From: a virus
Lineage: Duplodnaviria > Heunggongvirae > Uroviricota > Caudoviricetes
Direction: 5' to 3' (one strand)
IMG/VR virus record: IMGVR_UViG_2657245439_000004
DNA length: 5,982 nt
Shown here: in pieces, positions 131-5,982 of the stretch
Layout: each line of letters opens with the position of its first letter
Position numbering within the stretch: the first letter of the stretch is position 1
The notes under the pieces: model-generated
Databases searched by the model: none
What the model saw: the letters and a program-made list of their open reading frames with translations, nothing else
What the model was told of the DNA's origin: nothing
Translations under genes and position numbers: made by a program

Positions 131-3100
131 TCAACGAATACTGATGCCGGAAGCGGCTTTTTTGGTCACAATCACCGTACAGTCGGTGATATTACCTGCC
201 CACTGATTGCCTTTATGGAAAACCTTAAACTCCAGAGTGACGCTTCCCCTGCCACTCGGCATATCAATAACCGCACTGTAGCTACCGGGAATGGCCCCTT
301 TAGTTTCTCTGGATGCGATTAATACACCGTTTTTGCGAACTTCAAAACCATAACCCGTGTAACTTGTACCTCCCGGGTTATTACCACTTCCCGGATAGCT
401 ATACGCTATTCCGTTAAAGATAATGGGCGGAATAATGATTTGACGGTCAAAGTTATGATCATCGCTGATGGTGACTGTAACCGTCCCGTTTGGTGTTTCC
501 GTGTTACCCCACGTACCAGCCTGTTTCGGAAATGATTTGGATACAGCTTTAACGAAATCCCCTCTGACTTGGGTCGCCTCCAGCATGCCCTTAATCGTAC
601 AGTTTTCATTTACCGTGACATTGTTGAGCGTCCCGGCGTTCGCATTCACACTGCCACTGATATCCGCATTTTTAGCAGTCAGCTTTCCGTCCGGTGTCAG
701 GGAAAATGCCGGTGGATTGCCACCGCTGGTAATAGTGGGGGCCGTCAGGCGTTTCAGGAACACGTCATTCATGAATATCTGGTTGCCCTGCGCCACAAAC
801 ATCGGCGTTTCATTCCCGTTTGCCGGGTCAATAAACGCGATACGGTTAGCGGCAACCAGAAACTGGCTCAGCTTGCCTTCCTCCGCGTCCTCCATGCTGA
901 GGCCAATACCCGCGACATAATGTTTGCCGTCTTTGGTCTGCTCAATTTTGACGCCCCACATGGCATTCCATTTATCGTTAGCGTCCTTCCACTCTTTCGA
1001 AAACTCCTCCAGTTTGCTGGCGTTATCCTCCGTCAGCTCAAAGTTTTCCAGCAGTTCCTTGCCGAGATGCGTTTTATTGATCAACCCTTTATAAAAATTC
1101 AGATAACCTTCCGCATCATCGCTCGCCCGACCGACGGCCTCCACAAATGCCGATTTACCTACGGTGTTCACGCTGCGGGTATAAAAGTAATAATCATAAC
1201 CCGGCTTAATATTGATACTGGCGGCTATCCAGTACAGCGCCGTACCAAGATAACGCGCGCTGGTTTCAACCTGCCTGATATCGATAATCCGCTTTTCCGA
1301 GAACCAGAACTCAAACTGCACCGTCGGGTCATATACAGCCAGTTTCGGGACCGCTGTTATCTGAAAATACCCTGGTATCAGTTCAATAGTGACAGGCGCT
1401 GCCGGTGCCGCAATCCGGAACGATACCGATGCCGGATCGCCCTGCTGCCCCCACGCATTTACCGCCCGGACTGTCAGCGTGTAACGCCCCAGCGCCAGTT
1501 GCGTGAAGCGGTATGTGGTTTCCGTCGTCCGGGCCGTGCTGACCAGCCGCTCACTGCCGTCGTCCGCTGTTACGGTCAGACGGAGCAGGAAGCTCACGCC
1601 CTTCACCACCTTCGGTGTGTCCCATCGCGCCAGCACCTGATACTCCCCGCTGTCTGCGGTGACTTCGGCAGTCAGGTGCTGCACCGCTGGCGGCGTGACA
1701 CCATTCACCGTGCCGCTCTGGTCGCCGTCAAAGTGCGCCCCGTTATCCACGATGGCCTCTTTTTCCGGGACATGCTGCACGGCTGTGACAGCGTACGTGC
1801 CGTCGTCGTTCTCACGGACACTCACGCAGCGGAACAGGCGCTGGCGCAACGTCGGCAGCTTCAGCCCCCATACGCTGTATTCAGCAACACCGTCAGGAAC
1901 ACGGCTCACTTTTACCTTCACGCCGTCGGTGACGGACTGAACCTCCACGCTGACCGGATTGCCACTTCCGTCAACCAGGCTTATCAGCGTGGTACCGGAG
2001 GATGGCAGCGTGATTTCACGGTCGAGCGTCAGCGTCCGGGTCTGGCTGTTCACCGCCAGCACACGACCACCGGTGCTGATACCGGCATAGTCATCATCAC
2101 AGATTTCAATGACATCGCCCGGCACATGGCGAAGCCCTTCTGCGCCCACGCAGAAGTCCACGGTCTGCGTTTCCAGCAGTTCTGTTTTAATCAGCCACAG
2201 CCCGGCGCGGTGTGCCTGCCCCCGGCTGGTACAGCCAAAAGCATCCATCTTCGTGACGTTACGACCGTAACGGGCAATGGCCTGCGTATCCTCCACAAGC
2301 TCTGTCGCCGTCTCCCAGCCGTTGTTCGGGTCAATCCAGTTCACCTCAACGGCATTATGGCGGTCTTTCAGGGCGCTGAAGCTGTAGCGGAACGGCGCGC
2401 CATCATCCGGCATCACCACATTACTGCGGTTATAGGTCCACACCTTATCCGACGGTCGGTCCTGCACGAACGTCAGCGTCTGCCCGTTCCATACCGGCAT
2501 ACAGCGCATCGCCGAGCAGAAATCACTGAGCACATCCCACGCCTTGCGCTGTGTGGTCAGGTACGCATTACAGGTGATGCGCGGCTCCGTGCCGCCAAAG
2601 CCGTCCGGCACTGCCTGGTCGCAGTACTGGCCGATGACATACAGCGCCCATTTGTCCACATCCGCCGCACCAAGACGTTTCCCCATGCCGTAGCGCGGAT
2701 GGGTCAGCATATCCCACAGACACCAGGCCATGTTGTCGCTGTACGCTGGCTTGAACGTTCCGTCCCAGATACCGCTGTATTGCCGCGTCTGCGGGTTATA
2801 GTTCGACGGCACCTGCAGAATACGCCCGCGAAGATGATAATTACGGCTCACCTGCTGACTGCCGAACTGCTCCGAGTCCACCTGCACGCCGACCAGTGCC
2901 GTGTTCGGGTAGCACTGTTTCACATCGATAATTTCGGTGTATGACGACCAGAGCGTTTTGTTCTGCAGCTGGTCTGTGGTGCTGTCCGGCGTCATCCTGC
3001 GCATCCGGATACTGAACGGGCGCGGCGGCAGGTTATCCACCACCACTGAGGCCAGATACTGCGACGTGGTTTTGCCCTTAATGGTGATGTCTTTTTCTGT

Positions 3101-3544
3101 CACCCAGCCACCGTTACGTTGTATCTGAACCAGCAGGCGGACTTCCGACGGATTCCTGTCCCCCTTTGAGGTGGTTTCCACCAGTGCCTGCACACCGAAG
3201 GTAAAGCGCAGACGGTCGATATTTGCCGACGTGATGGTCCGGGTGAGCGGCGTGTCATATTTCACTTCCGTACCCAGCACCGTCTCGGAGCCGGAGGATT
3301 CAAATCCCTCCGGCGGAGTCTGCTCCTGCTCACCAGCCCGGAACACCACCGTGACACCGGAGATGTTGGTATTCCCCTCAGTGTCCAGCACCGGCGTACT
3401 GTTCAGCAGCACGCTTTTTAATCCATCCACCGGACCTTCAACCGGCCCTTCACTGATGGCATCAATCACACTCAGCAACTGCGTGGATTTCAGGTTGTCC
3501 TTCGCTTCGCGCGGGGTATGCCCCTTACTGCTGCCTTTACCCAT
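131..3544 (-). CDS. J: Lambda J-like central tail fibre / host specificity protein (tail tip attachment protein J), 1137 aa
   Basis: Single 3414-nt minus-strand ORF. N-terminus [38 protein letters not shown]... and much of the body (e.g. ...[18 protein letters not shown]..., ...[80 protein letters not shown]...) match my recollection of lambda gpJ (1132 aa). It lies immediately downstream of I, as in lambda. GGAG sits 9-12 nt upstream of the ATG at 3544. ATG start, TGA stop at 131-133. Confidence 0.92.
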
Positions 3545-4252: not shown

Positions 4253-4893
4253 TTGTCGGTATACCTCTCTCGTTTGCTCAGTTGTTCAGGAATATGGTGC
4301 AGCAGCTCGCCGTCACCACAGTAAATGGCGGCATGATTCGGCACCGATGAACCAAAACAGCACAGCAGCACATCGCCCGGTTGTGCTGATGACAACGGCA
4401 CCTGATACAGCCCTGTGGCCTCCAGATTATCCAGATAGAGATTCTGACCGTTACGCCACCAGTCATCCTCACGATGAAAATCCGGCATCTCAATCCCCGC
4501 CAGATGGTAAGCGTCCCGGAACAGCGTGTAACAGTCCGTCACCCCGTGCTCAAAGCGCCGCCCGGTAAGATGTGGCACACAGCGGAACTTGTGAATCGCC
4601 CCCCGGCAGACCAGCCACCACGGCAAATCACTCTGCACCTGCAACCGCCGGTCAGCCTCACTCAGCCAGGGCAGACCACCGGGGTGGCTGTGGACCAGCG
4701 CCACAATCTCACCCTGCATCTCTGCCTGCAGCCAGTCCTCCGGAGCCATCCGGAAATAATCCTCCGGCTCACCGGAAATATTCACGCAGGGAAAATATCT
4801 TTCCCCCTCCGGCGTTCTCACCACGAAGCCGCACGACTCCGCTGGCGCACATCGCCGGGCGTGCGCCAGAATCGCTGATTCTGTCTCTGTCAT
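4150..4893 (-). CDS. K: Lambda K-like tail assembly protein with JAMM/MPN metalloprotease motif and NlpC/P60-like Cys/His domain, 247 aa
   Basis: Minus-strand ORF MTETESAILAHARRCAPAESCGF... Contains the JAMM motif E-x(n)-H-x-H-x7-S-x2-D as ...AEMQGEIVALVHSHPGGLPWLSEAD..., and downstream Cys/His residues consistent with an NlpC/P60 papain-like fold (...HGVTDCYTLFRDAY..., ...VPNHAAIY..., ...LLHHIP...). Located between L and I as in lambda. The start at 4893 is 5 nt downstream of the L stop with no clear SD, suggesting translational coupling. An internal ATG at codon 49 is an alternative start. Confidence 0.85.
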   Translation of the reverse strand: MTETESAILAHARRCAPAESCGFVVRTPEGERYFPCVNISGEPEDYFRMAPEDWLQAEMQGEIVALVHSHPGGLPWLSEADRRLQVQSDLPWWLVCRGAIHKFRCVPHLTGRRFEHGVTDCYTLFRDAYHLAGIEMPDFHREDDWWRNGQNLYLDNLEATGLYQVPLSSAQPGDVLLCCFGSSVPNHAAIYCGDGELLHHIPEQLSKRERYTDKWQRRTHSLWRHRAWHASAFTGICNDLAAASTFV

Positions 4894-4898
4894 GGGAT

Positions 4899-5597
4899 TT
4901 ACTGCGAAAGTTTGTTAATGGAAAGGAAGCCGCCAAAGTTGCCGACGTTATTGCGAAACTTACAACCGCTCAGGCATTTGCTGCATTTATCCTTCGTGAT
5001 ATCGGACGTTGGCTGGTCATATTCATCCGCGACCGCCGGACCGTGATAACCGCACTCATCGCCGCGATAGGTCCAGGTGCAGGTGTTGGCCAGCATGATA
5101 CGTCCCGGAAAAACAGCGCCATCTGTTTCCGTCGGCGTGGACAGTACAAAGGAGGCACTCACCGCGCTCAGTTCGCTGCACTGCTCGATGCGCCAGCGGC
5201 TGATCACCTCCTGCTCCGGATCGGCGTCACTGTTTCCGTTAACGAAGTTCACCGCATCCAGAAAACGGGCGTAAACCTTACGCCGGACCACCGTTCCGCC
5301 GACCAGACTCTGCATATCTTCCGCCATCCCGGTGACCATACCGTACAGGTTAGAAACCGTCAGCGTGGGGCGCGTACTGGTGCCTTTGCCATTCAGTTCA
5401 AAACCACTCCCCTGAATGGGATACGGCTGATACTGTCGCCCCTGCCAGGTGACCGGCTCACCTTTTTCGTTCTGCTCATTACAGAAAAAATAACGTTCTC
5501 CACCGACCTCTGTCAGGTCGATTTCCCAGAGCACCACGCTGACCGACTGCTCCGCACGGGTGCATTCATTCAGTGTTTCCTGCCGGATATCCTGCAT
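4899..5597 (-). CDS. L: Lambda L-like minor tail protein (tail tip assembly protein L), 232 aa, with C-terminal cysteine cluster
   Basis: Minus-strand ORF MQDIRQETLNECTRAEQSVSVVLWEIDLTEVGGERYFFCNEQNEKGEPVTWQGRQYQPYPIQGSGFELNGKG..., the same length as lambda gpL (232 aa) and matching it as I recall. C-terminal Cys residues (...TCTWTYRGDECGYHG...KDKCSKCLSGCKF...) are consistent with the reported Fe-S binding of gpL. Its ATG (5595-5597) overlaps the TGA of the M reading frame as ATGA. Confidence 0.9.
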   Translation of the reverse strand: MQDIRQETLNECTRAEQSVSVVLWEIDLTEVGGERYFFCNEQNEKGEPVTWQGRQYQPYPIQGSGFELNGKGTSTRPTLTVSNLYGMVTGMAEDMQSLVGGTVVRRKVYARFLDAVNFVNGNSDADPEQEVISRWRIEQCSELSAVSASFVLSTPTETDGAVFPGRIMLANTCTWTYRGDECGYHGPAVADEYDQPTSDITKDKCSKCLSGCKFRNNVGNFGGFLSINKLSQ

Positions 5598-5925
5598 CAG
5601 TTCACCACCTGTTCAAACTCTGCGCTGAACTCAACACGCAGCATACTGACCCGTGACGACCATTTTGCGCAGGTCACCTTTATCTGCCGCCACTCATAAG
5701 GCGGCGTCCACAGAAAGGATTTCCAGCCCCGTGCTCAGCCAGAAACGACTCAAGCGCCGTGGCCTCCCAACGGGGAACAGAAAACGTCACGCTGTACGTT
5801 TTCAGGTTGGCATTCAGCCCGGCAGGCGCTCGCTGGGAATAACCATCACCAAAGCGCACCTTTCTTACAGAAGGGGCCGAAGCCACATCCATACCGGGTT
5901 TCACTTTCCAGCGGAAGGTTTTCAT
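5597..5925 (-). pseudogene. M: Lambda M-like minor tail protein gene disrupted by a 1-nt frameshift in a G-run (C-run 5727-5730 on + strand); could be a true pseudogene or a homopolymer sequencing error. The intact in-frame N-terminal ORF is 5680-5925 (81 aa)
   Basis: Seen in sequence: the ORF from ATG 5925 encodes MKTFRWKVKPGMDVASAPSVRKVRFGDGYSQRAPAGLNANLKTYSVTFSVPRWEATALESFLAEHG and then runs into ...AGNPFCGRRLMSGGR* (stop 5680-5682). A second frame, open from 5734, encodes GWKSFLWTPPYEWRQIKVTCAKWSSRVSMLRVEFSAEFEQVVN* and ends at TGA 5597-5599, overlapping the L start (ATGA). The span 5597-5925 is 329 nt, one short of the 330 nt needed for 109 codons plus stop. Adding one G to the GGGG run would join 66 + 43 = 109 aa, the length of lambda gpM. 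Confidence 0.7.
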
Positions 5926-5982
5926 CGTCCACCTCCGGAGAACAGGCCACCATCACGCATCTGTGTCTGAATTTCATCCTGC
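5922..5982 (-). CDS. H: 3' end (last ~19 codons) of the upstream tail gene, by synteny the tape measure protein (lambda H-like); partial, runs off the window edge
   Basis: The minus-strand frame entering the window at 5981 is open and reads ...QDEIQTQMRDGGLFSGGGR*, with its TGA (5922-5924) overlapping the M ATG (5923-5925) as ATGA. In lambda the gene immediately upstream of M is H. I could not check the peptide identity from memory, so this call rests on position and synteny. Confidence 0.45.
   Translation of the reverse strand, partial: QDEIQTQMRDGGLFSGGGR

Follow-up and report, generated by a model that had tools for sequence, protein, structure and literature searches.

One base short of a G5 run: frameshifted tail-tip gene M on a lambdoid prophage contig, by sequence error or recent deletion

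Introduction

Phage lambda carries its tail-tip genes in the order H-M-L-K-I-J, with overlapping H/M and M/L junctions. The product of M, gpM, is the distal tail protein and is present in six copies per tail, as seen in all five solved entries of tail tip protein M (8IYK, 8IYL, 8K35, 8XCG and 9E7M; 30 chains in total). The tail gene block of lambda also contains a programmed -1 frameshift, in the gene pair G/GT. It takes place on a conserved slippery heptamer, which is kept across phages. Frameshifts in such genes are further met as pseudogenes of decaying lambdoid prophages, where many neighbouring genes are broken as well, and as homopolymer errors of draft or long-read assemblies.

The DNA analysed here (the window), 5,982 bp in length, makes up all of contig JHTH01000239.1 in the draft assembly GCA_001266385.1. 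It shares gene order and both overlapping junctions with lambda but lacks one G at codons 66-67 of M, so that the deposited open reading frame stops after 81 codons. The decaying prophages offer the same change of G5 to G4 in three of the loci that we collected (L134, L135 and L146, the L146 lineage being supported by reads); in the window, however, M alone is broken and it carries no substitutions. As in homopolymer-error assemblies, a single base of a G/C run is changed on one contig, and the very same run is miscounted in L145, L149 and L151, assemblies with nearly all genes in fragments, whereas the contig of the window has no other discrepancy and was probably built from high-depth Illumina data. 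A -1 shift of the G/GT kind would mend M, which belongs to the same tail gene block, but the site in M lacks a heptamer as well as structure, the shifted arrangement is not conserved, and G and T themselves lie outside the window.

Results

The gene block of the window

Every gene is carried by the minus strand, and their order is that of the lambda tail-tip block. The features are as follows.

5922..5982, minus strand: 3' end of H, the tape-measure gene; last 19 codons (QDEIQTQMRDGGLFSGGGR) and stop
5728..5925, minus strand: M, codons 1-66, in the frame of the ATG at 5925; PF05939 profile positions 1-71
5727..5730, minus strand: G4 run (C4 on the plus strand), one G short of the usual G5 in the alignment
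5680..5727, minus strand: out-of-frame read-through of 15 unrelated codons (AGNPFCGRRLMSGGR) and premature TAA at 5682-5680
5597..5728, minus strand: M, codons 67-109 (5728-5600) and TGA stop (5599-5597), in the -1 frame; PF05939 profile positions 65-108
4899..5597, minus strand: L, 232 aa, intact; PF05100
4150..4893, minus strand: K, 247 aa, intact; Prok-JAB and NlpC/P60
3605..4252, minus strand: I, 215 aa, intact; 103-nt overlap with K, as in lambda
131..3544, minus strand: J, 1137 aa, intact; two SNPs relative to the close relatives L124 and L126

The TGA stop of H overlaps the ATG of M as ATGA (5925-5922), which is also the arrangement of lambda H/M. The original prediction had assigned an ATGA overlap to the M/L junction; this has to be corrected, as the M/L junction reads TGATG, the stop of M and the start of L having a single base in common (5597). 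The L start codon is preceded at a distance of 7 nt by the Shine-Dalgarno-like AGGTGG, and the same L protein sequence is found on at least 24 other contigs.

The contig breaks off 130 nt beyond J on one side and within H, of which the last 19 codons are present, on the other. Both ends are thus inside conserved lambdoid sequence, which suggests that the breaks were caused by repeats shared between several lambdoid prophages of one genome. The window is matched at up to 6 places in related EPEC genomes, and the EPEC strains O111:H2 12A and E2348/69 are among its best whole-window matches.

M is split between two frames at a G run

The open reading frame that begins at the ATG at 5925 runs through 66 gpM-like codons before it enters the 15 unrelated ones and the premature TAA, and the remainder of the gene is encoded in the -1 frame (GWKSFLWTPPYEWRQIKVTCAKWSSRVSMLRVEFSAEFEQVVN) up to the stop at 5599-5597. 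Both frames are open together only in the stretch from 5734 to 5683. Within it, the coding strand reads GGGG at 5730-5727, with a C on either side. In the alignment with lambda (J02459) and the phage YDC107_1, the sole gap in 342 columns fell on this run, which is GGGGG in both phages, and the segment 5597-5925 accordingly measures 329 nt in the window and 330 nt in lambda.

Membership in PF05939 was judged by the curated cut-off of 39 bits. The N-terminal fragment matched profile positions 1-71 (81 bits, E 1e-22), the fragment in the other frame matched positions 65-108 (46.6 bits, E 5e-12), and the addition of one G gave a gene of 109 codons whose product matched the profile end to end (1-108 of 108, 136 bits, E 7e-40). 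Since each fragment as well as the repaired protein matches the family, the split of M between frames is not due to chance. The repaired protein also aligned with lambda gpM in the structure 8iyk_M over residues 1-109 to 1-109 (E 8.8e-69), and codons 67-109 encode residues identical to those of lambda gpM 67-109. As deposited, M does not form an uninterrupted frame of about 109 codons, its 43 C-terminal codons being left in the -1 frame behind the stop. Thus, M is a frameshifted member of PF05939, as a pseudogene or through a sequence error. The original prediction of two halves of a lambda gpM gene in different frames, of the G4 at 5727-5730 as the site, and of a repaired length of 109 codons agrees with the translations, the profile matches, the structure and the lone alignment gap. 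The comparison with lambdoid M genes that it had proposed returned the G5 run in lambda, in YDC107_1 and in the closest relatives.

The closest relatives have an intact M

To sample relatives without regard to the G run, we picked 10 loci only by the identity of their L protein. All ten had an intact M of 109 aa with G5, reading CACGGGGGCTGG. Two of them, L124 (GCA_900450055.1) and L126 (GCA_900449225.1), could be aligned with the window over 4,084 nt, the only differences being one gap, at the missing G, and two SNPs, both inside J (window 3187 and 2378). M of these two relatives is intact (109 aa) and differs from M of the window by zero substitutions; the end of H, the rest of M, L, K and I are base for base the same as in prophages with an intact M. 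All 12 other homopolymer runs of at least 5 bases in these 4,084 nt agree with those of the relatives. An exact look-up of the 81-aa truncated product returned no contig besides JHTH01000239.1; its source was NCBI, and it was absent from the Logan read assemblies. The J protein of the window was likewise returned from JHTH01000239.1 alone. The lesion in M is without evolutionary depth.

L124 and L126 are identical to each other across the stretch compared with the window. Outside the genes in question, we noticed that H of L126 (UGBW01000003.1, 95-2675) is called as two open reading frames of 350 and 527 aa, while H of L124 is a single one of 859 aa; the split is probably a single indel in the L126 assembly.

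The four-G form is rare in databases

G4 was looked for in 5,426 complete E. coli genomes by means of two queries of 80 nt and two of 46 nt. The queries found 3,460, 2,723, 2,024 and 1,348 matching places, respectively, and none of these was an exact G4 match in the 5,426 genomes; the best match was always the query plus one base. Because complete genomes hold M in thousands of copies and G4 was found in none of them, we infer that the natural frequency of G4 is below about 1 in 1,000. In the phage collection, none of the 52 records was exact for G4, and five records were equal to the sequence of the window except for the added G. A pattern of 21 bases with G4 had no match in IMG/VR, where the G5 form was present on at least 120 contigs, and none in 185,579 species-representative genomes. 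It had two matches in metagenomes, one of which (L150) was rejected, since it is not an M gene and fits the 21 bases by chance.

The same run is changed in other M alleles

The 90% cluster of the 81-aa product contained 8 further sequences of 81 aa with the same break (HG/AG[NKR]PFCGRRLM...), which come from different M alleles, and 3 more products with a break a few codons later. We did not accept this cluster as proof of a hotspot, because clustering by itself favours the same out-of-frame tail. Three products of the cluster point to additional frameshifts a few codons past the run, with GGWKAF/RGRRLMSGGR in P0010 and P0013 and GGWKAF/CGRRLMSGGR in P0015. P0013, from a Logan contig, is a 322-aa H-M fusion with an additional frameshift at the end of H.

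As a gauge of assembly noise, the number of gap openings per kb relative to L124 was dropped, since real divergence between alleles dominated the count, and noise was judged instead by the fragmentation of genes in the gene calls. Among the loci with G4, almost all phage genes were fragmented in L145, L146 and L149. L134 and L135 were moderately broken, L134 having several phage genes in pieces. In L136, L137 and L138, M alone was broken and the tail clusters were otherwise intact. Four NCBI assemblies with large contigs (megabase- or 0.2-Mb-scale) carried G4, namely L134, L145, L146 and L149. In the lineage of L146, at least, the G4 lesion is genuine, because independent Logan contigs from separate SRA runs, 99.93% identical to L146, carry G4 too; one such contig was found in 6 samples.

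An M gene that has four G and still a continuous frame, which had been named beforehand as a case that would undermine the frameshift reading, does exist. The 80-kb contig SCPN01000351.1 (L151) has a lambda-like M with G4 at about 2059-2270 on the minus strand. A compensating additional G fifteen codons downstream (GGCGGCGAGATAAAG) regains the canonical C-terminus, and a deletion of 3 nt turns PREEAT into PREAT, so that the open reading frame is continuous with an out-of-frame patch of 15 residues. This sequence is 97.9% identical to lambda, with 10 gap openings in 7 kb. The case is thus a trivial, compensated one, and it supports the frameshift rather than speaking against it. Since the four large-contig assemblies with G4 have several or nearly all phage genes in pieces and L151 has compensating indels, the G run in M is a recurrent indel site in error-prone sequence.

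Sequence and structure around the run

The overlap of the two frames (5734-5683) contains no slippery heptamer of the form X XXY YYZ, the zero frame being CAC GGG GCU GGA. The 81 nt of RNA downstream of the run had a minimum free energy of -24.9 kcal/mol, as compared with -23.9 +/- 2.95 for shuffled sequences (z = -0.35). The two-frame arrangement of M was kept in none of the relatives: 10 of 10 identical-L loci had a single frame, as did the phage records that were checked.

A consensus scan reported a terminator-like hairpin across the G run (5746-5719, minus strand; 10 pairs, 3 of them G-C), followed by CCTTTCTGTG. We take it as probably a chance finding, with so few G-C pairs and a position inside a coding sequence. 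The region gave 2 such sites where 0.5 were expected by chance.

Discussion

Origin of the missing base

The original prediction had left both a real mutation and an assembly artefact open, and the evidence still stands there. While the frameshift and its position are read directly from the alignment, the choice between error and mutation is one that we infer. By our own rough estimate, either event has a prior of about 1 in 1,000 to 1 in 10,000 per copy. We slightly prefer an error: M would be an ordinary lambda-type gene, of which the deposited sequence is one G short of the G5 run, and the missing G would be due to an isolated error in the consensus of the draft (probability about 0.5). The confinement of the 81-aa product and of the J protein to one contig and the G5 run in all 10 identical-L loci speak for it. 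So do the near-identity to L124 and L126 with their complete M, the lack of exact G4 matches in the complete E. coli genomes, phage records, IMG/VR and species-representative genomes, and the indels that recur at this run in error-prone sequence. Alternatively, one G could have been lost recently by strand slippage in a resident lambdoid prophage, which would thereby have lost its own gpM; we regard such a deletion as a serious contender whose chances come somewhat short of even. In its favour, Illumina reads at ~226x seldom miscount a run of five bases, and the data are likely high-depth Illumina data, judged from the flanking accessions. No second homopolymer discrepancy appears in 4,084 nt, with 12 other runs in agreement, so that such errors are not general in the contig. 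Moreover, the identical lesion is present in at least 8 other M alleles, it is real and supported by reads in the L146 lineage, and it sits in the otherwise intact tail clusters of L136, L137 and L138. A real deletion is, however, harder to reconcile with a lesion that is seen on JHTH01000239.1 alone, with zero substitutions accumulated in M and the other four genes pristine, and with thousands of copies of M from complete E. coli genomes, of which none has G4; nor was the G4 allele of the window reproduced in Logan, although this may merely mean that no reads were deposited.

Other explanations are much less probable. The contig could be a merged or collapsed consensus of near-identical lambdoid tail modules, with G4 in only one copy or in part of the culture, and with one intact M or more still present. 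The position of both contig ends inside conserved phage sequence (the 3' end of H and the spacer downstream of J), the up to 6 matching places in EPEC relatives and a pipeline that joined contigs of two assemblers would fit such a merger, which we nevertheless consider improbable: with just 2 SNPs from one known prophage the window does not look like a mosaic, as far as can be judged from the one contig of the assembly that was viewed. Still less credit goes to the idea that full-length gpM is made from the G4 allele by -1 slippage or by G addition by RNA polymerase, the run then serving for recoding or as a phase-variable switch. If the ribosome moved back by one base after GGG (5730-5728), to read GGC (5728-5726), the wild-type H-G-G-W would indeed be restored, and with six gpM per tail even a low efficiency could suffice. 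But the zero frame CAC GGG GCU offers no heptamer, the downstream RNA folds like shuffled sequence, and every close relative and phage record checked has G5. Transcriptional slippage and phase variation are known for runs well above four bases, and here the run is of 4-5 bases, with G5 fixed in relatives and no G4 in 5,426 genomes. Recoding at M was rejected on these grounds, and the absence of recoding that had been assumed at the outset is borne out. It would be more far-fetched again to suppose that G4 is real and that tails are still made, through rare -1 slippage or the M of a co-resident prophage, with the G run as a leaky reversible switch.

Our view of the sequencing data behind the preferred reading and its main contender comes from the neighbouring accessions. 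JHTA-JHTG, JHTI and JHTK are GEMS EPEC isolates (PMC4433268, Table S2), which were sequenced on Illumina HiSeq2000 at ~226x, the contigs of Velvet and Edena being merged by Minimus (PMC4433268). The JHTH accession is named neither in the searchable literature nor in the text of the GEMS supplement, and its platform is thus taken from its neighbours; JHTH was presumably sequenced like them, and the best matches of the window to EPEC strains fit this.

Consequences for gpM and the prophage

As written, M would give an 81-aa product of 66 native and 15 unrelated residues. Without the C-terminal 43 of 109 residues this product should not work, and any translational coupling of M to L would be lost, as the premature stop lies 83 nt ahead of the L start. 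To call the prophage cryptic, as had been suggested for a real lesion, exceeds the data: cryptic prophages have several essential modules inactivated or missing, and the 6 kb on this contig show a single lesion. L, K, I and J are intact, and the sequence is otherwise that of prophages whose M is complete. A real lesion could, moreover, be made good in trans by the gpM of a second lambdoid prophage in the same cell. Without such help or a return of the run to G5, a real deletion would leave the phage without tails, and one EPEC prophage would freshly have been deprived of an essential tail gene, which is the textbook way for prophage decay to begin. An artefact would mean that one base is wrong in a draft assembly of 2015. 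Either way, M should be annotated as one frameshifted gene and not as an 81-aa protein. The event is of a known kind in a well-known gene, and there is nothing new in it. More generally, many deposited assemblies contain a miscount or a mutation in the G5 run of M, and isolated M 'pseudogenes' without read support are no evidence for defective prophages.

Observations on other sequences

The comparison of the lambdoid tail genes also brought up two other phage records. The 5' end of K in lambda J02459 (6127-6300, as compared with window 4730-4900) looks frameshifted relative to its relatives. Lambda reads GGAGG-CTATTTCC, whereas GGAGG and TATTTCC are two bases apart in the window and in about 113 further loci that we retrieved. 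As a consequence, the K of 199 aa annotated in lambda does not share the frame of the first ~48 codons (MTQTESAILAHARRCAPAESCGFVV...GEPE), whereas K of the window is one open reading frame of 247 aa. In the phage record MW057783.1, 'Campylobacter phage CJLB-4' (48,361 bp, host Campylobacter jejuni), the H-M-L region matched at 96.7%, the same as lambda, and at nearly the same coordinates (12966-13445, as compared with 13047-13526 in lambda). This record looks like lambda DNA and not like a Campylobacter phage.
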